32,000 nucleotides of DNA from an uncultured archaeon (GCA_963704435.1 OY969902.1:360001-392000); one strand, 5' to 3'. Counted from the first letter of the stretch, positions 12,287 through 31,144 are shown. A program made the numbers and translations. Notes: a model not told the origin generated them from the letters alone.

Positions 12287-12304
12287 CCGCTTTGCCCAAA
12301 GCGG
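12287..12304. terminator. Hairpin between convergent genes
   Basis: CCGCTTT-GCCC-AAAGCGG (7-bp stem), located between the stop of 9745..12207 (+) and the stop of Pelota (-). Function is inferred from position. Confidence 0.3.
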
Positions 12305-12321
12305 CCGGATTCCGATTTGCC

Positions 12322-13374: not shown

Positions 13375-13431
13375 GCTCTCAATGGTCTTCTGGCTAATCA
13401 AAGATAAAAACATATGCAGGGAAATAAACCC

Positions 13432-14058: not shown

Positions 14059-14234
14059 GAGAAAGCTTCATTTCCGCCCTTGAAAACAAGTTCAATATTT
14101 TGAACAGGGCCATATCTTTTTGAACGAGGGCTAGGGAGGCCATAGTCTAGGACATGCGGCGTAAGATAAGTGCAGTCGAAAAACTTATATATTAGAATTA
14201 CTATAACATTATAGTAAATAATATAGTGATATAA

Positions 14235-15770: not shown

Positions 15771-15858
15771 TTAATCCTATTCTGCAAGGGATAAAAATAG
15801 CGCCGAAGCCCGAGAGGCCTAGGGCATAAGCCAGCGGAAAAGTAAGCTTGGACTTAAA

Positions 15859-16209: not shown

Positions 16210-16293
16210 TCATATCCCTCGGGTGCTTTTAAATGGTGTGAAAGGTATTTATATATTCTTCGCAGTAGTAGTACTGCACTTTTGGTGTTTAGC

Positions 16294-16584
16294 ATGAGCG
16301 AGAGGTCGCACGGCCTGTTCTCCGGAAGGACAAGGCATCTGGCACGTCATCACAAGCCCGGCAGGCTGGGCATCAGCAAGCTGGCGAAGAACTTCAAGAT
16401 CGGAGACAGGGTCGTCGTTCTCCCGAAGGGCAACTTCAGGGACATACCCCACCCGAGGTACAGGGGAAGGGTCGGCGTCGTCACTGAGAAGAGGGGGGGT
16501 GCCTATGCCGTGGAACTTCGGCTCTCGAGGAAGACCACGAAGACGCTCATAGTGAACCAGAGGCACCTGGACAAGGCCCCGTAG
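16294..16584 (+). CDS. rpl21e: 50S ribosomal protein L21e
   Basis: MSERSHGLFSGRTRHL..FKIGDRVVVLPKGNF..PHPRYRGRVGVV.., 96 aa. The start is ATG-16294; the ORF-track extension from 16183 overlaps the divergent promoter. A T-run follows the stop. Confidence 0.92.
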   Translation: MSERSHGLFSGRTRHLARHHKPGRLGISKLAKNFKIGDRVVVLPKGNFRDIPHPRYRGRVGVVTEKRGGAYAVELRLSRKTTKTLIVNQRHLDKAP

Positions 16585-16710
16585 GATTCCGACTTCTTTT
16601 AATTTCCTAGAATGAGAAAAGTCACTTTCAAGGCTGACCTGTCCAAGACTATCTCAAGCACTTTTATGCCTTCTACGTAAGCAAAAACAACACCGACCAA
16701 AACAAGGCCA

Positions 16711-16744
16711 ATATTTATATAGATAGGTATACCTATGGTATACC
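16711..16744 (+). promoter_or_regulatory. TATA-like box plus tandem palindromic operator candidate upstream of the Doc gene
   Basis: ATATTTATAT at 16711-16720. The self-complementary 8-mer GGTATACC occurs at 16726-16733 and 16737-16744 (11-bp register), ending 1 nt before GTG-16746. Confidence 0.4.
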
Positions 16745-16745
16745 A

Positions 16746-17117
16746 GTGAACAACGTGAAACGATTAACGAAGGAAGAGATAGTTGAGATTAACAAGAGCA
16801 TAGGAGAGGGAGGGGTGGAGAAAAATAGCAATCTTCCTGGCATAATCTACGCGTTGGATGAGACTGCTAACGTGGAGGATTATGCGACGCTGCTCTTGAC
16901 TGAGCTAATAAATCTTCATCCTTTCTTGCAGGGCAACAAGAGGACCGCGTTTTATTCGCTTGTGATGTTCCTCCGGAAGAACGGATACGCGCTAAAGAAG
17001 GAGCATAAATATAACGACAAAATAGACAGGATACTGATAAGTGTGATACGAGGAAAATCAAAGAACCATACGAGGCAGTTGCTAAAAAAGATGATATATT
17101 ATGGAAAACCTAAATGA
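16746..17117 (+). CDS. Doc-family (Fic-fold) toxin
   Basis: Doc-type motif HPFLQGNKRTAF (HxFxxGNKR). 123 aa. AT-rich context. Confidence 0.8.
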   Translation: MNNVKRLTKEEIVEINKSIGEGGVEKNSNLPGIIYALDETANVEDYATLLLTELINLHPFLQGNKRTAFYSLVMFLRKNGYALKKEHKYNDKIDRILISVIRGKSKNHTRQLLKKMIYYGKPK

Positions 17118-17373
17118 GTTCAGACTAGAGCTTGATGAGGAGAGGAAAAGATGGGCCGACGTTGAATTGAGCCTCAAAAATGAGGAGCTTGGAGTCAGGC
17201 TTAGGGCGCAGAAAGTGACCACCATAAAGGTCCATGAAGTCACGAGGGAGATGATAGAAACTCGCAAGCTTTATCCCACTGAGACCTGTGAGGCGGTCAT
17301 CTGTCGCTTATTGAGCGGTTCCTCTTCCGCTACTCATACTTTGGAGAAGCTTAAAACAAGAGTGGGTGTTTAA
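17101..17373 (+). CDS. Putative cognate antitoxin (VapB/DUF217-like C-terminal motif)
   Basis: Overlaps the Doc gene by 17 nt. TTIKVHEVTREMIETRKLYPTETCEAVICRLL resembles the archaeal 'I.vsdev...L......eSfsdvI..LL' putative-antitoxin pattern. The N-terminal part is charged and helical. Confidence 0.45.
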   Translation: MENLNEFRLELDEERKRWADVELSLKNEELGVRLRAQKVTTIKVHEVTREMIETRKLYPTETCEAVICRLLSGSSSATHTLEKLKTRVGV

Positions 17374-17407
17374 CCCTGACATGTCCACCCTCTCAGGGAA
17401 CCGTTGA

Positions 17408-18022
17408 TTATTCGTATCTCGGTCTGGTGTAGACCGGCCTCGTGAGTATGTAGAACCTGCTCTCGCCCTTGAGCTCGGCTATGACCCTGTCCGTCAGCAG
17501 CTTCGCCGGGTCCTGCAGGAGCGGCACCCTCTTCGAGATGTCATCGAAGCTCTCGAACTTCGCCTCCTCCCTCGCCTTGATTATGGACATCAGGTGCTTC
17601 TTCCCGACGCCCGGAAGCAGCTCGAGCGCGTGCATCCTTATGTTGAGCGGGGACGCGTTGTTGAAGAAGTCGATGTACTTCTTCTCGTCGCGCTTGATTA
17701 TGTCGTATATCGCCTTGGGCAGCTCGCCCTTGGCCACCTCCGTAAGGTCCGCGTAGCCTATCCTCGACTTGATCAGCGAGACCTTGTCGCGGTCTCCCTT
17801 CCCCAGGTAGACGAGCTCGCCTATCTTCACGTCCGTCGACTTGGGCACCGCCTCCAGCAGCGTGAACCTGCTCTCGCCCAGCAGCTGCACCAGCGGCTCA
17901 GGGTTCGGCGAATAGGACTTCCCGGTGGGAAGGTAGTCGAGCACTACGGCGTGCTCCTCGAAGCTTTCATGAGCCTGCTCTTGCTGCATCCACATCCCCC
18001 ATTGCCCCCCGACGGCGTTCAC
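17408..18022 (-). CDS. DUF655-family protein (OB + helix-hairpin-helix, predicted nucleic-acid binding)
   Basis: HAVVLDYLPTGKS..., ..LELLPGVGKKHLMSIIKAREEAKFESFDDISKRV.. (HhH). The GTG start overlaps the rpo4 stop (GTGA). The exact start is uncertain. Confidence 0.85.
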   Translation of the reverse strand: MNAVGGQWGMWMQQEQAHESFEEHAVVLDYLPTGKSYSPNPEPLVQLLGESRFTLLEAVPKSTDVKIGELVYLGKGDRDKVSLIKSRIGYADLTEVAKGELPKAIYDIIKRDEKKYIDFFNNASPLNIRMHALELLPGVGKKHLMSIIKAREEAKFESFDDISKRVPLLQDPAKLLTDRVIAELKGESRFYILTRPVYTRPRYE

Positions 18023-18357
18023 TTACCCCTGTTGGCGTCGATGATCTCCATCATGGCCTTGATGTCGGCCTCCTCGAACGACTTCTTCTCCCTGACCAGT
18101 ATGTGCTTGAGCTGCGCGATGTCTATGGGCATTATGTCGGTCATCTTCACGGCCGTGTGCTCGCTGACGCCGATCGCCATGAGCGCGGTCCTGGCCTTCT
18201 TCGCGGCCTCTGAGCCTATGGCGGAGAACTTCTTGATGTGGTCGTAGGCGAGCTTCTGCTCGTAGCCGAGCTCCTCGTCCTTCTGCCTCTCCTCGAGTAT
18301 GTCGAGCGCATCGGTGAACGGCACAGGGCTCTTTCCCGACGCCGACTTTCCAATCAT
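18019..18357 (-). CDS. rpo4: DNA-directed RNA polymerase subunit Rpo4 (RpoF)
   Basis: MIGKSASGKSPVPFTDALDILEERQKDEELGYEQKLAYDHIKKFS... I prefer ATG-18357 (112 aa) because ATG-18390 lies inside the palindromic TATA-like GCTTTAAAGC/ATTTAAAG elements at 18372-18397. Confidence 0.85.
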   Translation of the reverse strand: MIGKSASGKSPVPFTDALDILEERQKDEELGYEQKLAYDHIKKFSAIGSEAAKKARTALMAIGVSEHTAVKMTDIMPIDIAQLKHILVREKKSFEEADIKAMMEIIDANRGK

Positions 18358-18448
18358 ATCTGCACCGATTGAACTTAGCTTTAAAGCCATTTAAAGCTTT
18401 TGCACGGCATGCCTGCCGAGTGGAATGATGCACGGCAAGCTTGCAGGG

Positions 18449-19390
18449 TCATGCCTTCGCGAGGAATTCCTTGACCTGCTTGTAATACTGCTTCAGGGCA
18501 AACTCCACCGGGGCCTTGACGTGGTCCTTCTCGACCGAATCAATGAGCGCTTCGAAATACTTCTCCTTCTCCAGGGATATGTTCAAGAGAGGGAAACCCT
18601 CGTCAAGCAGGGTCTTATTGAATATTAGCCTGCAGATCCTCTTGTTTCCATCAAGAAAAGGATGGATCTTGTACAGTTTGTAGTGCGCAATTGTGGCTTT
18701 TTCTATAGGATTTAAGCGGCTACGGCCATACCAGTCGATAAACTCGTCAAGCAGTTTACCCACCTTATCAGAGCCGGGAGGGCGATAGTTCAACTCAACG
18801 CTCACCTGCCCCTCCCCCGCCATCCTATGCAAGTACACTTGCCTATCCCTGATCCGTCCGGGATTCTTGGTCTCGAAGCTGGCCATGGTTATCTTATGCA
18901 GCCCGAGCAGGTACCTCATATCAAGCTTACGGGGCTGCCTTATCAATTCCACGGCATTGAGCATGTTCCTGCTTATCTGCTCTTTTTGGTTGAGATAGGA
19001 ACCCTTTTCCAAAGCGTTCTTCACGTCCGCCAGGCTAACGTCCACATCTTCCGTCGTGAGGGTCGTCAACGTGAACAAAACGGTGCTGTCGATGTCGAAG
19101 TTGCGCCTCTTCAGGTTAGTCAATTTCCCGTATTTCCTGTTGAACAGGTCCCGAAACAGCAGGGACCTTATGACCTCGCCATTCTCAATCAATTCCGCGG
19201 CATACTTTTTGCCCGAGAGCCTTACGACAATCTCTTCCTTGAAGCCGTTTTCGATCTTGACTAATTCCTTTTCAGTAGGCTTTCTGACCCCTATGTATTT
19301 GCTGAAACTCCTTGACTTGTCAATCAAGAAATAGCTAAGAAAGGAGTAGTAGTAATCATTTCCTCTGATCTTCTTTACGACGAGCGTCAT
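18449..19390 (-). CDS. Fic-domain protein (probable AMPylase/NMP-transferase)
   Basis: Fic motif HPFLDGNKRICR, 313 aa. Composition is more AT-rich than the flanking core genes. Confidence 0.85.
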   Translation of the reverse strand: MTLVVKKIRGNDYYYSFLSYFLIDKSRSFSKYIGVRKPTEKELVKIENGFKEEIVVRLSGKKYAAELIENGEVIRSLLFRDLFNRKYGKLTNLKRRNFDIDSTVLFTLTTLTTEDVDVSLADVKNALEKGSYLNQKEQISRNMLNAVELIRQPRKLDMRYLLGLHKITMASFETKNPGRIRDRQVYLHRMAGEGQVSVELNYRPPGSDKVGKLLDEFIDWYGRSRLNPIEKATIAHYKLYKIHPFLDGNKRICRLIFNKTLLDEGFPLLNISLEKEKYFEALIDSVEKDHVKAPVEFALKQYYKQVKEFLAKA

Positions 19391-19396
19391 GAATTA

Positions 19397-19483
19397 GTTA
19401 GGTAGATAAAACTATTTAAATCCATCTACCTAACCTCTGAATCAAATTAGGTAGATAGGATATATGAAAGTAATCTACCTAAC
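19397..19483. promoter_or_regulatory. Four copies of an 11-bp motif in alternating orientation, bracketing two TATA-like boxes
   Basis: GTTAGGTAGAT at 19397-19407. Its reverse complement at 19424-19434. aTTAGGTAGAT at 19446-19456. Reverse complement at 19473-19483. Both 16-nt spacers contain AT-rich boxes (TATTTAAA at 19413-19420; ATATAT at 19460-19465). The array lies between divergent Fic (-) and MoxR (+). Confidence 0.55.
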
Positions 19484-19531
19484 TGCAAAGGCGGTTGCGA
19501 TATAGTAACTGAAGGTTGTAATCGGCGTCAG

Positions 19532-20491
19532 GTGAAGGATTATAAGTCTGCGCATCATAAAGCAGGCAATCCAGGTGAGCACTTGAACGCTAGCGACTCC
19601 TACAAGCAGGTCCTTTCTGAGATGAAGAAGCACATCTCAGGGAAGGAGGAGACCATCGAGCTGATGTTCGTCGCGATACTCGCGAACGGCCACGCGCTGC
19701 TTGAGGGCGTGCCTGGAGTCGCGAAGACCACCATGACCAAGGCGCTGGCGAGCACCATCCAGGCGGATTTCAAGAGGATACAGGGCACGCCTGACCTAGG
19801 CCCGCGGGACATAGTCGGCTACACCTACGTGGACACGGACAACAGCGTCAAGTTCAGCAAGGGGCCTGTGTTCACCAACATACTGCTCGTCGACGAGCTG
19901 AACAGGGCCCCGCCCAAGACGATGAGCGCGCTGCTCGAGACCCTGGAGGAGAGGCAGGTCACTGCCGGGGGATCGGACATGAAGCTCCCGATGCCGTTCA
20001 TAACGTTCGCGACGCAGAACCCGCTGAGGATAGAGGGCACCGAGCAGATACCAAAGGTGCTGGCGGACAGGTTCATAATCAAGATAGACGTGGACTACCC
20101 GAGCATGAGGGAGGAGGAGGACATGCTCAGGATAAAGGAGAAGGAGGAGAACGTAGAGGTCAAGAAGATAATAGACACCAAGGCCATACTCGAGATGCAG
20201 GAGCAGGTCAAGGGAGTGGAGCTGCCGGACGACGTCGCGCAGTACATAACGAAGATAGTGGACGCCACGAGGAAGGACATGCACGCGGTCATGGGGGCGA
20301 GCCCCAGGGCGGACATAGCCTTCATGTGGTGCGGCAAGGCGAAGGCGCTCATCGAGGGCAGGTCCAGGGTCACCAGCGAGGACATAAAGTTCCTGGCGAG
20401 GCCGGTGCTGAGCCACAGGATAGCCGTCAGGGCGACCGGAGGCATAGGCGTGCACGGCATAATAGACGGGATAATAGCAACGCTCGGCTGA
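19532..20491 (+). CDS. MoxR-family AAA+ ATPase
   Basis: Walker A EGVPGVAKT, Walker B ILLVDELNRAPPKTMSALLE. 319 aa, typical of MoxR. GTG start; the N-terminal helix (VLSEMKKHISGKEETIE) requires a start upstream of ATG-19622. Confidence 0.9.
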   Translation: MKDYKSAHHKAGNPGEHLNASDSYKQVLSEMKKHISGKEETIELMFVAILANGHALLEGVPGVAKTTMTKALASTIQADFKRIQGTPDLGPRDIVGYTYVDTDNSVKFSKGPVFTNILLVDELNRAPPKTMSALLETLEERQVTAGGSDMKLPMPFITFATQNPLRIEGTEQIPKVLADRFIIKIDVDYPSMREEEDMLRIKEKEENVEVKKIIDTKAILEMQEQVKGVELPDDVAQYITKIVDATRKDMHAVMGASPRADIAFMWCGKAKALIEGRSRVTSEDIKFLARPVLSHRIAVRATGGIGVHGIIDGIIATLG

Positions 20492-20528: not shown

Positions 20529-20560
20529 GATGCTAGCATATGCTATACCAGGCCGGTTTT

Positions 20561-20929
20561 ATGAATTTTAGCAAACTCAGGTTGTTTGTTTACCTGCTGA
20601 CTACGGTCAGCATGTTCTCAATGGTACTCGGGCAGCCAGCGGTCACGGCGATATCGAGCACGCTCTGCGGGATAGTCGACGCCGTGAGGACCATAGTGGG
20701 CGCGCTGGCGCTGTGCCTGTTCCTGCTTGGCGGAGTCATGTACGCGGTATCGCACTTCCTTCCGACGAACCTCGAGTTCAAGAAGAGCCTCACGGCCTGG
20801 TCGACCGCGATGATAACAGGAGGCATAATCGGGCTGGTCATAGTCCTGATAGCGCAGCCTCTCATAACCACGATAACGGGATTGGGCAACTCGGTCAGCG
20901 GAACCACCCTCACCACAATCTCGTGCTGA
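20561..20929 (+). CDS. Small secreted two-helix membrane protein, VirB2/TrbC (CedA1/TedC)-like pilin candidate
   Basis: Signal peptide MNFSKLRLFVYLLTTVSMFSMVLGQPAVTA. Hydrophobic helix 1: LCGIVDAVRTIVGALALCLFLLGGVMYAV. Short polar loop: LPTNLEFKKS. Hydrophobic helix 2: WSTAMITGGIIGLVIVLIAQPLITTITGLG. This is the same order and approximate lengths as T-pilin/TrbC. The family call is by architecture only. Confidence 0.5.
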   Translation: MNFSKLRLFVYLLTTVSMFSMVLGQPAVTAISSTLCGIVDAVRTIVGALALCLFLLGGVMYAVSHFLPTNLEFKKSLTAWSTAMITGGIIGLVIVLIAQPLITTITGLGNSVSGTTLTTISC

Positions 20930-21009: not shown

Positions 21010-22920
21010 ATGCGGCTCGATAACGGCAAGGTCCTCTACGCCGAGCTATTCGTATTGCTGGTGATGCTTCTCGCGTATTGCGAGGGCACGTCCTTCATCA
21101 TCTTCCTGTCCGAGCAGATATCCATCGTCGGGCTCGCGTTCTATCTCCTGGCATTCGCCTACCTCATAGCATATGCCTATTGGAACTGCGCTGGCATGGG
21201 CGCACGCGGGACGAGCCACTGCTCCCTCGCGCTGCACGCCATGTTCATGGGGGCCGTTGCGGTCTTCCTGCTGCCCTTCGCGCTCGGAACTCAGATGTAC
21301 CCGGACATCCTGCTGAAGTCGGCCTACACATTCGAGTCGTTCGGCGTGTTCTTCGCCGTATTCATACCCCTCTTCTTCCTGACGTTCGTCGCCGCGTACC
21401 TGGCCAGGCAGAGGAAGGACTACAGGCACGCCCTGCTGCTGTTCATCGTGGCATTCCTAGTGCTGCTGATTCTCTTCTCCGCTAAGTTCCTGGTGAAGGG
21501 ATTCATCGCCGACGACGAGGAATTCCTAGCGGCGCAGAGCGTACATGCGATGCTCAGCGGCGCAAACCCATATGCAATGAACCTGGCTGGGCTAATCTAT
21601 GACAACTCCAGCGTGGTGGTCCCATCAATGACGGCCACTAACAGGATAATAGGGACGATGGTCTACCCTGCCCTGTTCTTCCTCACGTTCGTGCCCTTCT
21701 ACTTCGCTTCGCCGCTCACGCTGCAGAACATAGGCGGCATAGACCTACCCCTGCAAGCCGCGGTATTCGCGTTCGCGCTGCTTGCGGTCTTCGCATTCAC
21801 CGTGAACAAGGAGGACCTGTTCAAGCCGCGCGTCACGCTCCTCGCGCTGTTCGTCGTCGTGCTGGTGTACTACGTCTCATCCATAACGACGTACCTGATG
21901 CTCGCGCTGATGCTGCTAGCGTACGCGAAGATAGACTCGAAGTATGCGTGGATCCCGCTCGGGCTCTGCCTCTCGATACAGGAGGAGCTCTGGCTGCCCA
22001 TGCTATTCCTGCTCGTGTACTCATTGAACCGGCACGGCGCCAGGCGAGCGGCACTGAACGCGCTGGGCGCTGCGGCCGTGTTCCTTGCGTTCAACGCGTA
22101 TTTCATCGCGCTCGGGCCTGCGACATACGTCGGCGCGATATTCTCGCCCCTGAGCAAGATGCTTCTCCCTATAACCCCCTCTCCTATCGGCCTCCTGTTG
22201 ATGAGCGCCTTCCCGGTGCAGCTGCAGACATACTCGGCGGTGTTCGTGCTTGCCGCTGCGTTGCTGCTTCTTGTGTTCATGTACAGGAGCAGGAAGGAAC
22301 TGATACCGCTGTTCGGGTTCCTGCCGCTGCTTGTGCTTCCCCACCTGCTGCCGGCCTATTACATCCTCTTCCTCTTCTTCGCCCTATTCGCTGTGTGCAC
22401 TGCCGAAGGAAAACGCCGGAGCCTTGGCGTGGCCGAGGCATTCCTTCGCAAGAGGAAGCCGGTCCTTGCATGCGCGATTGTTATTGTTGTCGCCTGCACG
22501 GCGCTCGTACTCCTCTCTTCGCATGCGGCGTACGAAAGGAACTTCAACATATCATTGCAGGGCCAGAGCCTCTACCCACTTGCGGGCACGAACTCCACCG
22601 CCTACAACGCCAGCATAAGATATTCCGACCTTGAAAACGACACGGTCTATATGATGGTCATTGCGCATGCGGGCTTCTCCTCGGGGATCTTCGGCCTGCT
22701 GAACGATACGATCATAGTCCCTGCGCCTACGCCCGCGTGCGCAGCGTATGAGTGCTACGTCAACACGAACAGGATAGTGCTCTCGCAGAACGGGACGCAG
22801 GCCCTGGTGAGCGCCTTGCTGCCGCAGCTGAACGGTACCGACGTGGACTACGCGGACGTCGTCCTGTACAACGGCGAATACGTATACCTGGGGGCCAGCC
22901 TGCGCAGCGCGGGCAGGTAG
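21010..22920 (+). CDS. Large polytopic membrane protein, GT-C-type glycosyltransferase-like
   Basis: About 13 TM segments. The acidic loop FIADDEEFLAAQSVHAMLSGANPY...TMVYPALFFL resembles the Dx(D/E)...G.(S/N)PY...YPP loop of PIG-M/GT87/DUF2029-type mannosyltransferases. The C-terminal ectodomain of about 130 aa has 6 N-x-S/T sequons. TATA-like GTTAAATT at about 20981-20988. Confidence 0.45.
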   Translation: MRLDNGKVLYAELFVLLVMLLAYCEGTSFIIFLSEQISIVGLAFYLLAFAYLIAYAYWNCAGMGARGTSHCSLALHAMFMGAVAVFLLPFALGTQMYPDILLKSAYTFESFGVFFAVFIPLFFLTFVAAYLARQRKDYRHALLLFIVAFLVLLILFSAKFLVKGFIADDEEFLAAQSVHAMLSGANPYAMNLAGLIYDNSSVVVPSMTATNRIIGTMVYPALFFLTFVPFYFASPLTLQNIGGIDLPLQAAVFAFALLAVFAFTVNKEDLFKPRVTLLALFVVVLVYYVSSITTYLMLALMLLAYAKIDSKYAWIPLGLCLSIQEELWLPMLFLLVYSLNRHGARRAALNALGAAAVFLAFNAYFIALGPATYVGAIFSPLSKMLLPITPSPIGLLLMSAFPVQLQTYSAVFVLAAALLLLVFMYRSRKELIPLFGFLPLLVLPHLLPAYYILFLFFALFAVCTAEGKRRSLGVAEAFLRKRKPVLACAIVIVVACTALVLLSSHAAYERNFNISLQGQSLYPLAGTNSTAYNASIRYSDLENDTVYMMVIAHAGFSSGIFGLLNDTIIVPAPTPACAAYECYVNTNRIVLSQNGTQALVSALLPQLNGTDVDYADVVLYNGEYVYLGASLRSAGR

Positions 22921-22969
22921 CGGCTCCTTTAAGAGTATTTTTTAATGTTGCGTGCATTGTATAGAAAAC

Positions 22970-23710
22970 ATGAGGAACGTCAACATCCTTACAGACACGT
23001 GGGAAACGTACGTGGACAACATAAAGCTCGTCCTGCTCTTCTCGATACCCTTCTTCATATCGCTCGTCATACCGCTGTTCGTGAGCCTCCCGACCTACAT
23101 ATCCGGCGGGGGCATATTCCTCAGGAGCGCCAGCGTGTTCCTTAACCTCAACCCCGTCGCAGTTGGGGTCATAATCGTCTCGATGTTCCTGTCCCTGCTC
23201 TTCCTGAGCTTCGCGCTGGTCGCGATAGCGCTGATAGTCAGGGCGAAGAGGACCCACACCCGGCACGCCGGGAACGTCATAAGGGACATAGAGAAGTACA
23301 CGGGCAGGGTCTTCGTGATGCTGCTGGCGGCCGCGGGCGCGCTCACCGTGGTCGACATACTGAGCTACTTCATCGGCCTGCAGGGCATAGCGACCCCGAT
23401 AGCCGGGTTCGTGATCTTCACGGTGCTGTTCTACGCGCCGACCGCGATAGTCGTTGAGAACAAGAGGATAGGCCCCGCGATAGTGCAGAGCGCGCGGCTT
23501 GTCGCCAAGGAGCCCGGATACTACATCGCGTGGCTTGTGCTCGTCGTGCTGGTGCTCTCCGTGCTGGACGTGGTGCTTATGGCGCTGCCGTACGGCACCT
23601 TCCTGTCGAGGTACGGCCTGCTGGTCGTGAACTCGGTCTTCATACTCCCCTACTTCGTCATCTACCAGGCGGAGGCGTACATGAGGAGATTCCCTCTGCT
23701 GAAGCACTGA
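22970..23710 (+). CDS. Hypothetical 6-TM membrane protein
   Basis: Hydrophobic helices throughout. ATG-22970 is preferred over GTG-22952 because of the AT-rich box at 22927-22944. No recognisable catalytic motif. Confidence 0.7.
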   Translation: MRNVNILTDTWETYVDNIKLVLLFSIPFFISLVIPLFVSLPTYISGGGIFLRSASVFLNLNPVAVGVIIVSMFLSLLFLSFALVAIALIVRAKRTHTRHAGNVIRDIEKYTGRVFVMLLAAAGALTVVDILSYFIGLQGIATPIAGFVIFTVLFYAPTAIVVENKRIGPAIVQSARLVAKEPGYYIAWLVLVVLVLSVLDVVLMALPYGTFLSRYGLLVVNSVFILPYFVIYQAEAYMRRFPLLKH

Positions 23711-23750: not shown

Positions 23751-25103
23751 ATGAAGCGATGCTTCCTCGGCCTGCTGGCGCTTATTCTAGTTCTTGCAGT
23801 AGCGGCAAACGCCGCCTCTGCCGCATCGACGCCCTCCCAGACGTGCAGCGCACCTACTCTGCCTTCAACGGGCGCCACGGTAGACACAAGCCAATGCTAC
23901 CTGCCTGGCGCGCTGTCCGGAACTCCCGTCTGCTCCGCGGGCTGCTCGCTGGCCGTCTCCGCGTGCCCGCTGGGATCCCTTGGGAGCATATATTCCTGCG
24001 TATCGTCTTCGGAAGCCGCCTGCTCCGCTGCGCAGGCGATCGCTACTCCAACCAATGCGATAGCGATTTCGCTCCTCGCGCTCACGGTATCGTTCGACGT
24101 CGTCGCCGTCGCGTACATGCTGTCGAAGATATTCCCGCACACCGGGATAAAGGAATGGATAAGCAAGGAGTACTGGGAGATAACGAAGTCCGCGATGCTG
24201 ATAATCTCGATCTACGCGATAATCTCTATACTGGGCAACATCGCCCTCTTGGTCGCGGGCAGCTCGATCCCTGCCCCCGGCACCGGACTGACGACATGCA
24301 ATTCTGGCACATGCGGGCTGGTCGCTGGGGCGTGCGCATACCTTTCAACGGAGAACACTTACTTAGAAGGTACGTTCAGCTATCTCATAGGTCTAAGTGA
24401 GGGAATCGGAGCACTGCAGTCCGTTAAAGTAACGGCATTTTTCCCAATTGAAGCAATTTATGTGGTCTTCAAGTCGGGATTCACGGTTCCAGTGTATACG
24501 AACAACATGCTCGGGACGAGCGTGCCGGGCATAGCGGAATCGCAGTCGCTGATCAACGACGTATTCAACATACTGGCCTTTCCGCTGGCGTTCATCATCG
24601 GCGCGCAGCTGGCCGTGCTTCCGGTGCTGTTCGTGCTCGGGCTTGCGTTCCTGATACCCTTGGGCCTCATACTCCGCGCCTTCCCGTTCGTGAGGGGCAT
24701 CGGCGGGACGTTCATAGCCGTAGGCATAGGCGTAGCGCTCATTTACCCCGCGCTGCTGGTGCTGCTCAACGCGCCGATCACCTCCGCGCTGCAGGGCACG
24801 GCGTTGGCCGCTCCTCCGCAGTCCCCTCAGGTAGGAAATGGAATAATAGCCACGCTCGCTGGGATAGTCTTTTCCATAATGGGAGGATCTGCGTCCGCAG
24901 GCATAGGGACTGCGCTGGACAGCATAAACACGATATACCCTGCGATTAACGGAATACTCTACTACAGCACGTACCTCATGCTCCAGTTGTTCCTGTTCAT
25001 ACTCGACATCACGATAGCGTTCCCGCTTGTCGATAACATCGCAAGAATGCTCGGCAGTTCGGGAATAAGGCTCTCGATAGCAGGCAAGATAAAGCTCGTG
25101 TAG
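23751..25103 (+). CDS. Polytopic membrane protein, paralog 1 of 6 (VirB6/CedA-like by topology and context only)
   Basis: Signal peptide (..AVAANA/ASAAS) and a Cys-rich N-terminal ectodomain. Motif 1: GIKEWISKEYWE. Motif 2: LILRAFPFVRGIGGTFIAVGIGVALIYP. C-terminus ..GKIKLV. TATA-like TATTTATA at 23715-23722. Confidence 0.8.
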   Translation: MKRCFLGLLALILVLAVAANAASAASTPSQTCSAPTLPSTGATVDTSQCYLPGALSGTPVCSAGCSLAVSACPLGSLGSIYSCVSSSEAACSAAQAIATPTNAIAISLLALTVSFDVVAVAYMLSKIFPHTGIKEWISKEYWEITKSAMLIISIYAIISILGNIALLVAGSSIPAPGTGLTTCNSGTCGLVAGACAYLSTENTYLEGTFSYLIGLSEGIGALQSVKVTAFFPIEAIYVVFKSGFTVPVYTNNMLGTSVPGIAESQSLINDVFNILAFPLAFIIGAQLAVLPVLFVLGLAFLIPLGLILRAFPFVRGIGGTFIAVGIGVALIYPALLVLLNAPITSALQGTALAAPPQSPQVGNGIIATLAGIVFSIMGGSASAGIGTALDSINTIYPAINGILYYSTYLMLQLFLFILDITIAFPLVDNIARMLGSSGIRLSIAGKIKLV

Positions 25104-25111
25104 GTGCTAGC

Positions 25112-26302
25112 ATGGCGTTCGGATCTCTAGGATTGCTTCTTCAGGCGTGCGGATTCGCGAGCCTGAACACCGGAGACTGGATAGGCATCAACACGCTTGT
25201 TGTCCTGCTTGGCATAACCGTGGCCGCATTCATCTACGCCTTGGCGAACTTCCTAACCGTTGAGAGGAGGGAGAAGCTAAAGGGTTATGTCAGGTACGAG
25301 ATCCTCGAGGCGGCGTTCAGCGCGATAATCCTCGTGTCTCTCATACTCATCGCCTCCTTCGCGTGCAGCGCGGGAGGCCTGCTGTACGGGCAGAGCGGCT
25401 ACACGGGCCTCTTCGCCTCATCCGACACGTACGTCGGGAACCTCCTGTTCGTAAGCGGTCTCAGCGCGCTGGGGAACATCTTCACTGTCGGAACGCAGTA
25501 CACCGTCATTTCGAACATCGCGCAGGGAATATCAGCGGGCTACCTCGAATCTATCTCAGAGAACTACTCTGTGCCAGTACTAGGGGGCTATGCCTCTATT
25601 TCACCAGACACGAAGATAACCGATCTGTTCACCAAGTTCTCCGCGCTCTTTTTCACGCTTGTCGATACGATGGCTATCTCGTTTGGAGGCCTGTTCATAC
25701 TGTTCGTTATGCTTCCAATAATAAGCGCGACCGCGCTAACTGTAGTGGCGCCTACGGCGCTTCTGATGAGGTCGCTGAGCTTCATGGGGCCTCAGTTGAG
25801 GAGGACTTCCAACCTATTCCTCGCCATGGCCATAGGCTTCTATTTCGTGCTGCCCTTGATGATAGGCACCAACGCTTATGTGGCCAGCTGCTTGAACATA
25901 TATGCATCCCCTTCGCAGCCTTCCTGCAACTATCCCTTCTTCCCAGGATATACCGGACCTTACACCCTGTTTTCGGTTTCTACATCCTCGCTGTTCGGCT
26001 CGGGCGCCACGTATCCGCTCAGCTCCTCCAACTTGCCAAGCTTTGCAAATGGCATCTCAGTTCCACTGAGCTTCTTCGGGTCTGCGTTTTTAAGCACGAG
26101 TGGTCTAGGACAGCTGTTTACTATCATATTTAACGGACCTCAACTCGCAGCGCAGTATGCCTCGGCTACCGCGGCGTACGTATTCATGGGAATCATAATG
26201 GTCGCGCTGGACCTAGGCGTGACCGTGGGCTTCATAATGGGAATCGCGAGGGGCTTGGACTCGCTCGGCAGATTTTCAGGAGGGTCGTTCTTTGGTGGTT
26301 GA
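25112..26302 (+). CDS. Polytopic membrane protein, paralog 2 of 6 (most divergent)
   Basis: Motif 1: EKLKGYVRYEILE. Degenerate motif 2: LLMRSLSFMGPQLRRTSNLFLAMAIGFYFVLP. AGGTG lies 8 nt upstream of the ATG. Confidence 0.8.
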   Translation: MAFGSLGLLLQACGFASLNTGDWIGINTLVVLLGITVAAFIYALANFLTVERREKLKGYVRYEILEAAFSAIILVSLILIASFACSAGGLLYGQSGYTGLFASSDTYVGNLLFVSGLSALGNIFTVGTQYTVISNIAQGISAGYLESISENYSVPVLGGYASISPDTKITDLFTKFSALFFTLVDTMAISFGGLFILFVMLPIISATALTVVAPTALLMRSLSFMGPQLRRTSNLFLAMAIGFYFVLPLMIGTNAYVASCLNIYASPSQPSCNYPFFPGYTGPYTLFSVSTSSLFGSGATYPLSSSNLPSFANGISVPLSFFGSAFLSTSGLGQLFTIIFNGPQLAAQYASATAAYVFMGIIMVALDLGVTVGFIMGIARGLDSLGRFSGGSFFGG

Positions 26303-27817
26303 TTGAGGCTCGCACTGCTCATAGTTGCGCTATTCGCGCTCCTTGCGCCTTCGCTGGCAATGGCGGCATCAGGCGGATTCATCACGAACTACTCTGAGTT
26401 CTCGCTGTGGCTGCCGGTCATAGCGCTCGCGGCGACGATGAGCGTAATGTTCACCGGAATCTATTACATCATGGGAGTGGTGCTGCAAAGCAAAGACATA
26501 AAGTCCAGAGCAATCGGAGAGTTCGGCCAGGCCGTAGGTACGGTGATCATAGTGGTGGCCCTCATCGGAATACTATGGTTCGTAGGCACGAGCGAGTTCT
26601 CCCTCGTCTCAGCCCTTGCCCCGGGCTCTCTCTCAACCGTCTGCAGTCAGCTTGGCGCGTCGCAGGTGCTACTGCTCAACAGCAATGCGCAGATTAACGA
26701 CATATCCACTCCGACGAGCGTCGTGTGCTCCGCCGTGAGCTCTCTCGCATCCGCGGGAGGAGGAGCAGCGCCCGCGTCAGGGAGTTCATCGGGAGGAACG
26801 GACATAACGCCGCAGCTGGACTACGGCCTGCTAGCGAGCTATGTCATAATGGCGAACGTTACCAACCAGGCTGCGACCAATATCAACTCCGTGTACATCT
26901 TTGAGGGATGGATGCTCTTCTTAGGAGGGGTGACCGCCAATTCCGCATTCTGCGAACCACTCACTTGTGCTGCTCCGGATACGCCAGAGGCTATTGAAGT
27001 GGACCTCTTCAGCACTCCGATGGCGGGATATGGAAACCTTCTCAACATTTTCAACCCTCTCGAAACAGAATCCTGGCTGACGTTCTACATCATGTTCGTG
27101 CAGCTTTTAGTCATAATTCTGCTGCTCCTCGCATGGCCGTATCTGCTTGCTGCGGGAATGATACTCAGGGCGACGTTCCTAACCCGAAGAGCGGGAGGCT
27201 TGATTATGGCTATAGCGGTATCGATGGCCTTGATATACCCACTTATGTATGTTCTGGAGTACAGTGCATTCGCGAACCTCAACTTGAGCCCCCTTGGTGC
27301 AGGCATGACAGCGAGCGGCGCGACAGCGAACCCCCTTCTGGACATGCCGCTATATGAAAGCCAACCTAATGCCGGGCTTCTAAGCGGCTCCAGCATAGTG
27401 ACTTACGGATCGTCGGGGCTTAATTTCTTCATACTCCCCAATGCTAAGGAGGTGATTGACAGATATTCATGCATGCCTCCGACAGACCCAACAGGAGTGC
27501 CTAACTTACTTGGGGGGGAAACGGCAGTAGCTCTGTTGTATTTGGCACCCGGACTTAGCTTTGCATCCACGCTAACGGCTGCGATAAGCGGGTTCGGCGG
27601 TGGCCTAGGTGTGGTCCCATCGATAAGCGCGTTGGGCTGCTCCCCGAACAACGCGATAAACGCGGCGCTGGCGCTGATAAACCTGTACGGGGTCGTCTTC
27701 GTCCTGGGAATCGTGCTACCAGTAATAAACGTGATGATTGCAATAGCCATGGTCCAAAGCACGGCAAGGCTTTTCGGCGGAGACACGAACATACTCGGGA
27801 TAGGGAAGCTGATATAG
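26303..27817 (+). CDS. Polytopic membrane protein, paralog 3 of 6
   Basis: TTG start immediately after the preceding stop. Signal peptide ..APSLAMA/ASGG. Motif 1: DIKSRAIGEFGQ. Motif 2: MILRATFLTRRAGGLIMAIAVSMALIYP. C-terminus ..GIGKLI. Confidence 0.8.
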   Translation: MRLALLIVALFALLAPSLAMAASGGFITNYSEFSLWLPVIALAATMSVMFTGIYYIMGVVLQSKDIKSRAIGEFGQAVGTVIIVVALIGILWFVGTSEFSLVSALAPGSLSTVCSQLGASQVLLLNSNAQINDISTPTSVVCSAVSSLASAGGGAAPASGSSSGGTDITPQLDYGLLASYVIMANVTNQAATNINSVYIFEGWMLFLGGVTANSAFCEPLTCAAPDTPEAIEVDLFSTPMAGYGNLLNIFNPLETESWLTFYIMFVQLLVIILLLLAWPYLLAAGMILRATFLTRRAGGLIMAIAVSMALIYPLMYVLEYSAFANLNLSPLGAGMTASGATANPLLDMPLYESQPNAGLLSGSSIVTYGSSGLNFFILPNAKEVIDRYSCMPPTDPTGVPNLLGGETAVALLYLAPGLSFASTLTAAISGFGGGLGVVPSISALGCSPNNAINAALALINLYGVVFVLGIVLPVINVMIAIAMVQSTARLFGGDTNILGIGKLI

Positions 27818-27830
27818 AAGAGGTTAGGAC

Positions 27831-28979
27831 ATGATAAAGGTGGTCGCTCTTATGGTGTTCGCGCTTCTTATCGCTAGCGCAGGCGCGCAGGGGCTCATCA
27901 ACATACCCGCAGGGCTGTGCCCTACCCTCTTCCCGAGCGGCGGAGCAGTATCCAGCACGGGCGTTGCGCTGGGTAACGCATCAACCTACTCGAGCATAAT
28001 AAGCATCTCGCTAATCGTGGTCCTCACCATGCTGTCGGTACTTGGAATAACGTACGCATTAGGGACCGCGTTCAACATAGAGCCCCTGAAGGCGTTCACG
28101 CGCTCCGAGCTCGCCGAGAGCATATTCAGCCTGGCGCTCATCCTGGTGCTGGGCCCTGGCCTTGCGTTCTCCGGAAGCGTAATATCCTTCATCTCTAACG
28201 TCGGGCTCGCCAGCATGCTGACGCTTCCCTCCAGCGGAACTGCAACCTTTCCCACCGCATCGGTCACGAGCGCAGGCGATGTCTACGTAGCGCTGTGCAA
28301 CAGCTACATAACTCAAGGCACGAACATAATGATATCAAATGCGTTCACGACATACGCTACGTTTACAATAATGGAGTTCATAAGATCTCTGAATTTCCCT
28401 ATCTCAGGCCAATTCGGAGTTAATGAGTTCAAGCCCTTTGCAGGCATATTCCCACTGTCGAAGGGCCTGATAAATGGCCAGCTTGAGGCATTCTATGCGA
28501 TGGTAGGCATACTGCTCGGAGTGACCTTCTTCCTCTATGTCATATATGCCATCTTCCCGCTGCTCCTGTACGCGGGGCTGTTTCTGAGGTCGCTACCGTG
28601 GACCCGCGCCGCTGGCGGCTCCTTCATCGCGATGTTCATCGCTTTCTACATATTCTTCCCAGCGATACTCTACCCTTTCTCGCTTTACATGTATTCTTCT
28701 AATGGATACACGCCACTTACAATCTCCAGCAGCGGCCAGGCCATCACTACATCGTCGTTCTTCTCAGTCGGAGCGATAGGAGCGGTGATTCCGTGGTTCT
28801 CCGGCAGCTTGATAGTCAATGAAATATACGGCTTCGCGCAGCAGGGCGCAGCAGTCGCACTGCAGATGCTTGGCGTACTCATCGCATTCGTAATCTCCTT
28901 CGACCTTGTGGAGGCATTCGGTGACCTTCTGGGAGCGCCATCGCTGCACACCAGGAAGCTTTTGGGCAAGTTGATATGA
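27831..28979 (+). CDS. Polytopic membrane protein, paralog 4 of 6
   Basis: Signal peptide ..ASAGAQG/LIN. Motif 1: PLKAFTRSELAE. Motif 2: LFLRSLPWTRAAGGSFIAMFIAFYIFFP. C-terminus ..LLGKLI. GAGGT lies 8 nt upstream. Confidence 0.8.
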   Translation: MIKVVALMVFALLIASAGAQGLINIPAGLCPTLFPSGGAVSSTGVALGNASTYSSIISISLIVVLTMLSVLGITYALGTAFNIEPLKAFTRSELAESIFSLALILVLGPGLAFSGSVISFISNVGLASMLTLPSSGTATFPTASVTSAGDVYVALCNSYITQGTNIMISNAFTTYATFTIMEFIRSLNFPISGQFGVNEFKPFAGIFPLSKGLINGQLEAFYAMVGILLGVTFFLYVIYAIFPLLLYAGLFLRSLPWTRAAGGSFIAMFIAFYIFFPAILYPFSLYMYSSNGYTPLTISSSGQAITTSSFFSVGAIGAVIPWFSGSLIVNEIYGFAQQGAAVALQMLGVLIAFVISFDLVEAFGDLLGAPSLHTRKLLGKLI

Positions 28980-30031
28980 TGAGCAACATGATACTTCTAT
29001 ACAGCATCGCGAACTATGTTACCTCGCCGTACCTCATCTGGTTCCCAGTAGTGATGTCAGGCGCACTTGCAATAGTAGGCATAATCGCTCTGGTCTACAT
29101 GCTAAGCTCGTCGATAGGCAGGGAAGACATACGGATTCAGGCGAAGATGAAGATTTACGAAATCGCAATCTCCATCCTGATGATTTTTGCGTTCCTAGTC
29201 CTCGCCACGCTCGTGACCTCGATGAACTTCGAAATGATGCTTTCCCCGTCCGGCCTCGTCCCGAAGGGCTGCACGAGCACGGTCGACATGTTCTCGCTCG
29301 CCATATGCAACCTGCACGAGTTCAATAACAACGTCCTGAACCTGACCGCACTCACTTACTGGATGGGCGTGTCGCTCTCTTTCGTGCCAAAGCTGACGCT
29401 GAATGGACAGGCCGTCGTCTCTGCGCTGACAGGCATACAAGGCTGGGGCCCAACGGCGGACGTGTCACTGCTGCCTAGCTCGTACGACGCATTCATAGGT
29501 TATCTCCTCATCGCACTGTACTTCTCCTTCATGTTGTCACAGGTGGAGATGCTACTTCTCGAGGCGTCTCTCCTGCTATTCTCGATGTTCATGGCAATAG
29601 GGCTTATAGCCAGAATCTTCGTCATCACGAGGAGCTTCGGCGGGTCGATGATTGCCCTGGCCATCGGAATCGGAATGCTCTATCCCTTCCTCGCGTGCAT
29701 AACATACGGTTACATCAATGTTGGAATGGAAGCCAATAATGCAATCTTCAGCGGCGCTACGCCTTATGTGATAATCCTGGGCATCACCTTGGCTTCGATT
29801 TCAATGATAGCCTTCACCTTGCCTGCAATCCTGGCTGCGCTTGGAGGCATATCCCTCGCGTACTTCAACGGACTGATAACAAGTGCGTTGATCTACGCAG
29901 GTCTCGCTGGAGCGGGATTATTACTGATTCCCTTCGTAAACTTCCTCATAATTGATGTTTTCATAATCGACTTCTCAAAGGTAATAGGAGAGAAGATGGA
30001 CTTCATGAAGATTCTTACCGGAATAATCTAG
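28976..30031 (+). CDS. Polytopic membrane protein, paralog 5 of 6
   Basis: ATGA overlap with paralog 4. Motif 1: DIRIQAKMKIYE. Motif 2: LIARIFVITRSFGGSMIALAIGIGMLYP. C-terminus ..LTGII. Confidence 0.8.
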   Translation: MMSNMILLYSIANYVTSPYLIWFPVVMSGALAIVGIIALVYMLSSSIGREDIRIQAKMKIYEIAISILMIFAFLVLATLVTSMNFEMMLSPSGLVPKGCTSTVDMFSLAICNLHEFNNNVLNLTALTYWMGVSLSFVPKLTLNGQAVVSALTGIQGWGPTADVSLLPSSYDAFIGYLLIALYFSFMLSQVEMLLLEASLLLFSMFMAIGLIARIFVITRSFGGSMIALAIGIGMLYPFLACITYGYINVGMEANNAIFSGATPYVIILGITLASISMIAFTLPAILAALGGISLAYFNGLITSALIYAGLAGAGLLLIPFVNFLIIDVFIIDFSKVIGEKMDFMKILTGII

Positions 30032-30034
30032 GAG

Positions 30035-31144
30035 ATGCGAGTGGAATATCTGACGCGCACGAGATTCATAATGATCGCACTTGCCGCACTTCTGGCAATG
30101 TCCATGGGAACGGTAGGGGCCCAGACAACGTATTGCCAACCAGGGGGCACTGCTGAATCCCTAGCGCCGTGGTACTGCAGCCAGCTGAACCAGGCCATCA
30201 CGAGCGTCTGGCAGAAGTGGGAGCCAGTCGCGATAATCACCATATTCCTGTCGTTCTTCATTGCAGCGTTGATATTCATGGTAGGAATAGCAATGCGGAA
30301 CGATGGTGTGAGGAATTTCGGGGTCGGCGAGATGTATGAGGCGTCCGCCACGGCGCTGATTGCAATATTCTTTCTCACGCTGTCGGCTATACTCTTCGGA
30401 GTAATACCAGGATTCTTCGTAGGTCCGATAAATCCCTATGTCACGGCGCTGTCGTACATAAGCAATACCGTCAATGCAACGCAGGGAATCATAAAGAGCT
30501 TGTTTGCAGTCCAGATGACCGCCAGCTACTTCATTTCGTTGAAGCTACACATATACGTCTATGCATTTGGAGAGCTTACGGCGGGCGGATTCAACAGCGC
30601 GACCTTTTATGAGCCATTTGCGAAGTTCATAGCTCCATTTTTCATAGTACCTGCTAATACTATCATTTCCATGCTAACAGACGGCCTAATTTACTTGTCC
30701 GCGGAGTTCTACATGATACTCTTCCTCATGTACATCGCGGTGCCCGTGCTGCTCATACCTGGAATCATACTCAGGGCGATATTCCCTCTGAGGGGGCTTG
30801 GCGGTACGCTGATCGCCATGGCCCTGGCGTTCTATCTAATAATGCCCGTCCTCTTCTCAGTCGTCTATTACTTCACGAACACCAGCATGATAGGTACGCT
30901 GACTGCTGCAGCGGCCCAGATCACCGCGAACGGGGCGGGGACTGGGGCAATAACCAACACCGTCTCCGCCACGTCGCCTCTGGTAACCCAGGTTTCAAAC
31001 CTGGAGAGCAGCATGGGGGCGTACTTCCTCGCGATTCTGTTCTATCCTGCCTTGATACTTACAATTATCTACGTAGCGATAGTCGAGATCTCCGGTTTCC
31101 TTGGTGTGGCGGTAATGAAGTCCAAGAGGCTAAGCATGGTATGA
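30035..31144 (+). CDS. Polytopic membrane protein, paralog 6 of 6
   Basis: GGAG lies 3 nt upstream. Signal peptide ..GTVGAQT/TYC. Motif 1: GVRNFGVGEMYE. Motif 2: IILRAIFPLRGLGGTLIAMALAFYLIMP. Confidence 0.8.
   Translation: MRVEYLTRTRFIMIALAALLAMSMGTVGAQTTYCQPGGTAESLAPWYCSQLNQAITSVWQKWEPVAIITIFLSFFIAALIFMVGIAMRNDGVRNFGVGEMYEASATALIAIFFLTLSAILFGVIPGFFVGPINPYVTALSYISNTVNATQGIIKSLFAVQMTASYFISLKLHIYVYAFGELTAGGFNSATFYEPFAKFIAPFFIVPANTIISMLTDGLIYLSAEFYMILFLMYIAVPVLLIPGIILRAIFPLRGLGGTLIAMALAFYLIMPVLFSVVYYFTNTSMIGTLTAAAAQITANGAGTGAITNTVSATSPLVTQVSNLESSMGAYFLAILFYPALILTIIYVAIVEISGFLGVAVMKSKRLSMV

Follow-up and report, generated by a model that had tools for sequence, protein, structure and literature searches.

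Six tandem membrane proteins of one old family

The stretch of DNA analyzed here, called the window below, comprises 32,000 nucleotides (GCA_963704435.1 OY969902.1:360001-392000) of a Micrarchaeota (DPANN) genome, and the archaeal genes within it include those for eIF2-gamma, TBP, L21e, RpoF, aRF1, KsgA and a DUF655 protein. Our subject is a run of six consecutive open reading frames (ORFs) on the + strand, P1 to P6, which encode polytopic membrane proteins and belong to a gene cluster conserved among Micrarchaeota. A previous reading made from the sequence alone (the sequence-only reading) had placed them at 23751-31144, with lengths of 450, 396, 504, 382, 351 and 369 amino acids (aa), and had described them as paralogs sharing two motifs (motif 1, here shortened to [KR]-x5-E, and motif 2, with the core R-x5-R-x2-G-G). 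We reproduced the coordinates and the lengths. The six genes are the following (TM, transmembrane; AF2, AlphaFold2).

23751..25103, + strand: P1, 450 aa; signal peptide; N-terminal ectodomain rich in Cys; core of five TM helices with motifs 1 and 2
25112..26302, + strand: P2, 396 aa; without signal peptide; motif 2 diverged; first TM hairpin pilin-like
26303..27817, + strand: P3, 504 aa; starts with TTG right at the P2 stop; Cys residues in two large, acidic ecto-loops
27831..28979, + strand: P4, 382 aa; an independent gene call starts 21 nt later, at 27852, giving 375 aa
28976..30031, + strand: P5, 351 aa; overlaps the P4 stop (ATGA); Lys replaces Glu in motif 1
30035..31144, + strand: P6, 369 aa; most conserved paralog; confident AF2 model with long helices and a beta-hairpin

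The intergenic spacers from P1 to P6 measure 8, 0, 13, -4 and 3 nt. Together with the TGA-TTG abutment at the P2/P3 junction and the ATGA overlap at the P4/P5 junction, these spacers fit a single operon, and judging by this spacing the six genes may also be translationally coupled.

We fetched 80 related genome loci, called their ORFs and built an orthogroup of 65-78 sequences for each paralog. Direct pairwise BLASTP gives only weak similarity between the six (E 1e-4 to 1e-7 around motif 2, with P2 marginal at E 0.03), whereas the use of orthogroup profiles makes the result decisive. In HHalign comparisons, all 15 pairs of orthogroup profiles scored 96.7-99.9% (E 4e-10 to 2e-32) over 211-363 columns, compared with less than 5% for other membrane proteins of the same operon against the P profiles. 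Forward-versus-reversed profile nulls did not exceed 14%, over at most 45 columns, which rules out chance similarity through TM composition. In addition, a profile built solely from P6 orthologs picks up the P1, P3, P4 and P5 families with E-values down to 1e-8 to 1e-12, scaled to a database of 1.84 billion proteins. Thus the paralogy is real but very old. The accompanying proposal of an old duplication with retention of all copies also holds: exactly one of each of P1 to P6 occurs in the canonical order in 60 of the 65 loci that hold both P1 and P6, these 60 coming from different Micrarchaeota species. The five non-canonical loci look like cases of split or mis-assigned genes.

Motif 2 is shared as described, with two Arg, one Ala and one Pro invariant across the six window proteins. 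The pattern R-x5-R-x2-G-G is found in 100, 0, 78, 99, 81 and 100% of the P1 to P6 orthologs, respectively, versus 0.1-0.2% of shuffled sequences; the P2 version, already noted as degenerate, is diverged and carries an insertion. For motif 1, the Glu stood up (at least 90% conserved in five of the groups, with Lys at this place in P5), but the remainder of the pattern is looser than had been stated. The hydrophobic C-terminal tail is likewise present but only moderately conserved, and an L-G-G just past the last TM helix makes a better third signature.

The topology was derived by a simple hydropathy and positive-inside analysis, applied alike to P1-P6 and to VirB6 of A. fabrum. All six proteins follow one predicted plan: an outside N-terminus, TM1, a short basic loop, TM2, a large acidic ecto-loop, TM3, a second short basic loop, TM4, another ecto-loop, TM5 and a basic tail. 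Signal peptides are present on four of the six. Motif 1, motif 2 and the C-terminal tail all lie within basic, predicted cytoplasmic segments, and all Cys residues fall inside predicted extracellular segments, in agreement with the Cys-containing variable ectodomains recognized before. Many P1-type homologs (P0086, P0096, P0112, P0129, P0143) have N-terminal extensions of 100-590 aa that carry adhesin-type domains (PKD-like, SprB, Ig, IPT/TIG); in place of such an extension, P1 of the window has a Cys-rich segment of 80 aa.

The sequence-only reading could not assign the six to any characterized family, and our searches came to the same result. Scans of all six window proteins against Pfam, NCBIfam and PHROGs gave no match, nor did a Pfam scan of 38 P6 orthologs at E<=10, and sequence-profile searches of the PDB with two alignments (A1 and A2) returned zero matches at E<=10. 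In particular, neither the six proteins nor the P6 orthologs had a Pfam or NCBIfam match to an ABC-type or other permease or to a T2SS-F/PilC/FlaJ platform protein, and no ABC or PilB/FlaI ATPase was found among the neighboring genes of the cluster; the clean mapping to a permease or ABC family that had been considered as the alternative was not obtained. The P6 homologs belong to metagenome-assembled genomes (MAGs) of Micrarchaeota and to Ca. Micrarchaeum sp. A_DKE, which is in culture. They bear no informative functional names, apart from one JGI record labeled 'ABC-type cobalt...'. An exhaustive profile search collected 3,015 cluster representatives (50% identity) at E<=1e-3, 2,324 of them at E<=1e-10, and the top matches among those listed are unnamed Micrarchaeota orthologs of P1 and P6. 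The six therefore belong to a large, unannotated protein family. No description of the family or of the cluster was found in the literature, of which subscription journals were covered to a limited extent.

A conserved gene cluster of Micrarchaeota

The six genes are embedded in a cluster of about 17 genes, in the order [MoxR], pilin-like, M636, DUF4013-like, P1-P6, Q266-Q274, ATPase, R99, R124, R240, R50 and R776. The members visible in the window besides P1-P6 are listed here.

19532..20491, + strand: MoxR-type AAA+ ATPase (Pfam AAA_3, 1.5e-46), directly 5' of the pilin-like gene
20540..20929, + strand: pilin-like protein, 129 aa; VirB2/TrbC-type candidate, syntenic with the six paralogs
21010..22920, + strand: M636, polytopic with about 13 TM helices and a C-terminal sequon-rich ectodomain; its position in the cluster is conserved
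22952..23710, + strand: DUF4013-like protein, 252 aa, 6-7 TM helices; conserved immediately 5' of P1
31267..32000, + strand: Q266, truncated at the end of the window; TM hairpin and a soluble domain of about 200 aa

M636 has no Pfam or NCBIfam match, and the DUF4013-like protein falls just below the Pfam cutoff (DUF4013, E 8.9e-6, 26.1 bits versus 26.9). TATA-like elements lie about 20 nt upstream of the pilin-like gene (TTTAAAT) and between P6 and Q266. Among the genes known from the relatives, R124 combines a Zn-ribbon with a TM helix, R240 a coiled coil with a winged helix-turn-helix, and R776 is bitopic with a large sequon-rich ectodomain. The membership of the MoxR ATPase in the system is uncertain; its adjacency to the pilin-like gene is also seen in a distant relative (L003) and in nine loci whose flank reaches it. 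Mean pairwise identity is 70% for the ATPase, 32-43% for the paralogs and 38% for the pilin-like protein. P6 is followed by Q266, Q274 and the ATPase in 52 of 69 loci, and the ATPase module is inverted in six.

The cluster was found in at least 80 species-level genomes of Micrarchaeota, including that of Ca. Micrarchaeum harzensis A_DKE, in which the orthologs lie at about 804-825 kb of NZ_CP060530.1, and it occupies roughly 2% of a genome of less than 1 Mb. Its flanks are housekeeping genes, e.g. those for topo VI-B and KH proteins, and neither IMG/VR contigs nor PHROGs yielded any relatives of it. The housekeeping flanks and the lack of relatives on viral contigs indicate that the cluster is chromosomal and vertically inherited, and an origin from a mobile element was rejected on the same grounds. 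Several cluster-bearing contigs (L016, L028, L034, L045, L060 and others) were deposited under other names, such as Candidatus Saccharimonadales bacterium, Methanothrix sp., 'bacterium' and Marsarchaeota; these are probably mis-binned or mislabeled MAG contigs.

A distant family member (P0098) led to a locus of an AT-rich archaeon with 37.5% GC (L086). Positions 7464-19835 of this locus encode six tandem paralogs of 549, 291, 390, 389, 541 and 400 aa, all of which carry the two motifs and end in a K-L-I-type C-terminus, and the first two have P1 and P2 as their best matches. Thus the number six recurs in a separate lineage. One of these paralogs carries a Cys-rich repeat insertion, and the 3' neighbors of the array are an 823-aa protein with TM segments and a long coiled coil and a 693-aa Cys-rich secreted protein.

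Possible relation to type IV secretion systems

The six proteins indeed lack a family match, but the sequence-only reading had missed their context. A VirB2-like candidate, a VirB4-type ATPase and hints of a VirB6-like topology and fold place them in a setting that resembles a type IV secretion system (T4SS).

The ATPase encoded by the relatives is about 500 aa long, has no TM helix and matches the Pfam triad DUF87, AAA_10 and P-loop_TraG. Its tblastn matches are TraC/VirB4 proteins encoded on conjugative plasmids and, on plasmids of Firmicutes, DUF87 ATPases. The best match sits in a bona fide monoderm T4SS locus of Brevibacillus, which encodes T4SS_pilin, PrgI/VirB3, a 332-aa protein (B332), an ATPase with the same Pfam triad, an M23 hydrolase and a 1015-aa protein with a weak TrbL match. 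The profile of the Micrarchaeota ATPase aligns to the Brevibacillus VirB4 with an HHalign score of 98.8% (E 1.2e-16) over 319 columns, spanning only the C-terminal ATPase half (VirB4 residues 256-615), and it matches the VirB4 C-terminal domain structure 4ag5 in the PDB at 1.4e-7. A VirB4 N-terminal domain (PF03135-type) had no Pfam match in the ATPase. In one locus (L005, 15232-15966), a protein with an SLT lytic-transglycosylase domain (Pfam 1.4e-17) is encoded just past the ATPase module; it is VirB1-like, which is odd for an archaeon.

The two genes between P6 and the ATPase, Q266 and Q274 (11233-12864 in locus L001), are paralogous to each other (HHalign 96.9%, E 1.3e-10), and each encodes an N-terminal TM hairpin followed by the soluble domain. 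Pfam and PDB profile searches detected no relatives of the soluble domains, and an identification as VirB8 or as the VirB4 N-terminal domain was therefore rejected. The signals between VirB3 and Q274 (8%) and between B332 and Q266 (12%) are too weak to use.

The pilin-like protein has a signal peptide and two hydrophobic helices with a short basic loop between them, a layout of the VirB2/TrbC type. The window copy matches Pfam T4SS_pilin at E 0.12 and TrbC/VirB2 at E 0.47. Among 32 orthologs, TrbC/VirB2 (PF04956) matches 18 (best 2e-4), T4SS_pilin (PF18895) nine (best 1.3e-3) and DUF3852 three. Two tandem copies of the gene are present in L005 (1864-2873). The family has two near-invariant Cys residues, Cys43 just before helix 1 and Cys129 at the C-terminus or close to it. 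TrbC/VirB2 pilins are cyclised head to tail; speculatively, a Cys43-Cys129 disulfide would tie together the ends of the mature protein in a manner reminiscent of these cyclised pilins.

A further link between the pilin-like protein and the paralogs was found in P2, whose TM1-loop-TM2 hairpin aligns to the pilin-like profile with an HHalign score of 92.3% (E 5.7e-7; reversed null 0.3%). A pooled hairpin profile of all six families scored 41% (E 2.8e-4; reversed nulls at most 0.6%), while the hairpins of the other five paralogs gave at most 2% each and other TM controls at most 8%. The alignment superposes the Y-[AM]-L helix end noted by the sequence-only reading onto the invariant Y-A...P of the pilin-like family. 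N-terminal homology to the cognate pilin has been reported for CedA/CedA1 and for VirB6/VirB2 (PMC9905601). The similarity of the P2 hairpin to the pilin-like protein would resemble this relation, although it is not conclusive alone.

Several properties of P1-P6 recall VirB6/TrbL (PF04610). The topology plan is the one computed for A. fabrum VirB6, with an outside N-terminus, five TM helices, a large ecto-loop between TM2 and TM3 and basic cytoplasmic loops and tail, and a model with five TM segments has been described for VirB6 (PMC2653234). The genomic company expected of VirB6 is found in the relatives, in which a VirB4-family ATPase is encoded downstream and a VirB2-type candidate upstream. 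The AF2 model of P6 (pLDDT 83, pTM 0.73) contains helices of 40-54 residues and a beta-hairpin. Foldseek found no significant PDB neighbor for it, and the best TM-scores were those of R388 TrwI/VirB6 chains (0.28/0.36). For P1, the model is of low confidence (pLDDT 57) and shows the same secondary-structure plan; R388 TrwI/VirB6 (8rt9_F) ranked first of 350,542 chains with a non-significant E of 0.07 (prob 0.82, 327 columns). Among PDB folds, VirB6 comes out best for both modeled paralogs, in neither case significantly. In contrast to VirB6/TrbL, P1-P6 have neither a Pfam match nor profile-profile similarity, they form six distinct paralogs, and four of them carry signal peptides. In the VirB6 sequence of A. 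fabrum we found neither R-x5-R-x2-G-G nor [KR]-x5-E. In the R388 structure, a single VirB6 protein reportedly forms a homo-pentamer.

The closest precedent for the six-paralog array is the rvh T4SS of Rickettsia, in which five arrayed VirB6 paralogs (RvhB6a-e) with about 80% amino acid divergence lie beside VirB3-VirB4 (PMC2653234). Both systems have tandem, extremely diverged and species-conserved paralogs in the VirB6 position, and both occur in genome-reduced obligate symbionts. However, the Rickettsiales proteins have recognizable TrbL/VirB6 domains with long flanking extensions, number five or four, and function in bacterial diderms with a full VirB8-11/VirD4 set.

Among archaea, the Ced system of Sulfolobales (CedA/CedE, CedA1, CedB/CedD) and the Ted system of Thermoproteales (TedA, TedC, TedB), both of which import DNA, are comparable (PMC9905601, PMC11868833). 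For Ced, a hetero-oligomer of CedA and CedE has been proposed, and the VirB4 N-terminal domain is split off (CedB/CedD; PMC11868833). As in Micrarchaeota, chromosomal genes make up a 'domesticated' T4SS-like set, in which a HerA/VirB4-clade ATPase accompanies a polytopic membrane protein and a pilin resembling VirB2; Ced and Ted are mutually without sequence similarity, and the likeness to P1-P6 is drawn from published descriptions. They differ in having one or two channel paralogs, not six, and in the HerA, Rad50 and ParA genes of their loci, which were not seen in the Micrarchaeota cluster. The Patescibacteria (candidate phyla radiation, CPR) keep a T4SS of VirB4, VirB6, VirB3/PrgI and VirB2-like components that is reported to be essential for epibiotic growth (PMC12102498). 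This monoderm system is likewise kept in ultra-small, genome-reduced episymbionts, and the Micrarchaeota ATPase is closest to VirB4 of the monoderm type; in contrast, the CPR system belongs to bacteria, and standard T4SS hidden Markov models (HMMs) detect its components but not the membrane components of Micrarchaeota. VirB4/TraG-like ATPase domains are also carried by the SPEARE proteins of nanohaloarchaea.

Two other identifications were rejected. The components of the MoxR/vWA 'novel secretion system' (Makarova 2015) differ from those of the cluster, and the S-layer protein of A_DKE, which has a PF05123 domain, is encoded by another gene.

Proposed function and alternatives

With moderate confidence, we propose that Micrarchaeota have a chromosomal, T4SS-like (Ced/Ted-like) apparatus in which P1-P6, as a hetero-oligomer analogous to VirB6, form the membrane channel or platform. 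Strict co-occurrence, single copies and shared cytoplasmic motifs would fit the obligate hetero-oligomer of six suggested by the sequence-only reading. One copy of each paralog would give a hetero-oligomer, possibly a pseudo-sixfold ring matching a hexameric ATPase. In such an assembly, the basic loop with motif 1, the R-x5-R-x2-G-G loop and the basic C-terminal tail would offer the ATPase and its adaptors equivalent cytoplasmic surfaces for docking or gating. Because the ATPase is without a TM segment, it must dock on membrane partners. Besides this soluble VirB4-type ATPase, the partners would be the VirB2-like pilin candidate and the TM-hairpin proteins Q266 and Q274, which may act as adaptors and could perhaps stand in for VirB3 and for the VirB4 N-terminal domain that the ATPase lacks. 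The pseudoperiplasm of a Micrarchaeon measures 20-25 nm, and the diverged ectodomains, often adhesin-type in P1 orthologs, would face this space and the host and support a pilus or conduit built of the VirB2-like protein. The substrate could be DNA, as in Ced, or other host-derived macromolecules, and the machine may serve the symbiont-host interface.

A number of observations weigh against this proposal. The TrbL (PF04610) HMM had no match among the six window proteins (E<=1) or the 38 P6 orthologs (E<=10). Homology to VirB6 by sequence was rejected: a VirB6 profile scored at most 0.4% against each of the P1-P6 orthogroups in HHalign, equal to controls, though with limited power, since its 117 sequences (A. 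fabrum VirB6 seed, 40-95% identity) are alpha-proteobacterial and broadening by tblastn reached alpha-proteobacteria only. VirB6 is notoriously divergent. Single-sequence tests with the 1015-aa VirB6-like protein, VirB2, VirB3 and PrgI of Brevibacillus were negative or powerless, as the true VirB4 scored only 7.8% against the ATPase in the same kind of test. The fold matches to VirB6 are not significant (E 0.07 and 1.2, TM-scores 0.24-0.36), the P1 model among them is the one of low confidence, and the P1 and P6 models are not independent tests because the two proteins are paralogs. All matches of the pilin-like family to pilin families remain below the Pfam thresholds, and a PDB profile search with this family found no pilin. 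In HMMER searches of the PDB, the ATPase scores similarly or slightly better with HerA than with VirB4; for this reason it was placed in the HerA/VirB4 assemblage and not cleanly in VirB4, and the safe statement from these comparisons would be a clear VirB4-domain homology without the VirB4 N-terminal domain. Neither VirD4 nor a relaxase nor VirB8 was recognized in Pfam and PDB searches of the cluster proteins. In four loci, among them that of the genome studied here, whose ATPase is either encoded elsewhere or lost, the ATPase module is not next to the six genes, and the AT-rich archaeon has neither a pilin-like nor an ATPase gene within 10 kb of its six paralogs. Since the fold and hairpin hints are each inconclusive, P1-P6 are filed as VirB6-like by analogy: they would work like VirB6, a statement about role and not about family membership.

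A bolder version of the proposal appears doubtful to us. It holds that the six form a hetero-hexameric, pseudo-sixfold ring mating with a hexameric VirB4/HerA-type ATPase, in a machine restricted to DPANN-type archaea (as sampled in Micrarchaeota and one AT-rich lineage) that exchanges DNA or macromolecules with hosts, and that this machine is possibly the barrel of Micrarchaeon ARM-1. This barrel-like platform of 21 nm was seen by cryo-electron tomography in the ARM-1 envelope, where host nanotubes enter, and no genes have been tied to it.

The same barrel is a candidate structure for an alternative that we regard as tentative and rather unlikely, in which the cluster encodes a new DPANN envelope machine not derived from a T4SS. 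Here a six-paralog ring, bitopic glycoproteins and a HerA-clade ATPase would serve for host docking or for spanning the pseudoperiplasm, and the likeness to VirB6 and VirB2 would be convergent. The lack of detectable VirB6/TrbL homology in P1-P6 and the HerA scores of the ATPase, at least as good as those with VirB4, speak for it, as do the absence of T4SS counterparts for M636, Q266/Q274, R99, R124, R240 and R776, the adhesin-type ectodomains of P1 orthologs, the barrel itself and the conservation of exactly six paralogs in two lineages. Against it stand the strong homology of the ATPase domain to VirB4, the repeated TrbC/VirB2 matches of the pilin-like family, the rank of VirB6 as top fold match and the hairpin-pilin similarity, which points to T4SS ancestry; moreover, a tie between the locus and the barrel would be conjectural, as would the presence of the cluster in ARM-1.

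It is improbable, in our view, that the six are alternative channel or adhesin subunits used according to host, substrate or condition, with only a subset in each complex. The highly variable ectodomains, adhesin-like in P1, would suit such a use, pilin genes are duplicated in some loci (e.g. L005), and for the VirB6 paralogs of Rickettsia a role as 'multiple diverse uptake channels' has been considered (PMC2653234). However, families of this kind usually vary in copy number, whereas one of each paralog is kept in fixed order over about 60 species, every orthogroup shows conservation and a signature of its own, and the short spacers (-4 to 13 nt) imply that the genes are co-expressed to a similar degree. 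Finally, it is very improbable that the six make up a permease of several components that transports solutes or lipids and has nothing to do with secretion, since the polytopic nature of the proteins, the need of a reduced genome to import many metabolites and the single 'ABC-type cobalt...' label of a P6 ortholog are set against the lack of any transporter family match in Pfam, NCBIfam and the PDB, the absence of an ABC ATPase or substrate-binding protein from the cluster, predicted very long helices reaching beyond the membrane and a beta-hairpin that are not transporter-like, and neighbors that are pilin-like and VirB4-like.

The part of the window upstream of the cluster has further features of its own. 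Two Fic/DOC-domain proteins (16746-17117, +, 123 aa; 18449-19390, -, 313 aa) are encoded amid housekeeping genes. The TBP gene (15859-16209, -) encodes 116 aa with one TBP repeat (Pfam TBP 1-85/85, residues 11-93); past this repeat, a short basic tail leads to the stop, and a second repeat is not visible in frame downstream; canonical archaeal TBP has two repeats. It adjoins a possible insertion, a low-GC island (14001-16000, GC 0.40-0.43 versus 0.51-0.62 elsewhere in the window), in which a DUF6036 nucleotidyltransferase (15255-15770) is encoded beside a 339-aa ORF without family match (14235-15254). An aRF1-like ORF (12322-13941, -, 539 aa), whose eRF1 domains begin at residue 190, has either an N-terminal extension or an upstream start that is an artefact of ORF calling. 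Two tandem beta-propeller/NHL-repeat proteins on the + strand (6624-9668, 1014 aa; 9745-12207, 820 aa) are duplicated at the DNA level in their C-terminal halves, with five collinear blocks of 72-94% identity at a spacing of about 2.53 kb. Paralogs of a DHH/DHHA1 phosphoesterase also stand in tandem (1736-2740 and 2771-3838, -).

T4SS-like or Ced/Ted-like systems are known as a class; what is new here is the six-paralog family at the core of the cluster, which would define a large unannotated protein family of 3,015 cluster representatives. Six channel paralogs in fixed order are unprecedented, and they would allow the change from a homo-oligomeric channel to a fixed hetero-oligomer to be studied in a natural system. 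If the hetero-hexameric ring is true, it would be a membrane counterpart of hetero-hexamers of the Mcm2-7 or Rpt1-6 type. The cultivated co-cultures of A_DKE and ARM-1 make experiments feasible. The locus is a concrete candidate for how DPANN archaea exchange material with their hosts and, if the proposal of a VirB6-analogous channel is true, the theme of the 'domesticated T4SS' would extend from Ced/Ted and CPR bacteria to DPANN archaea.

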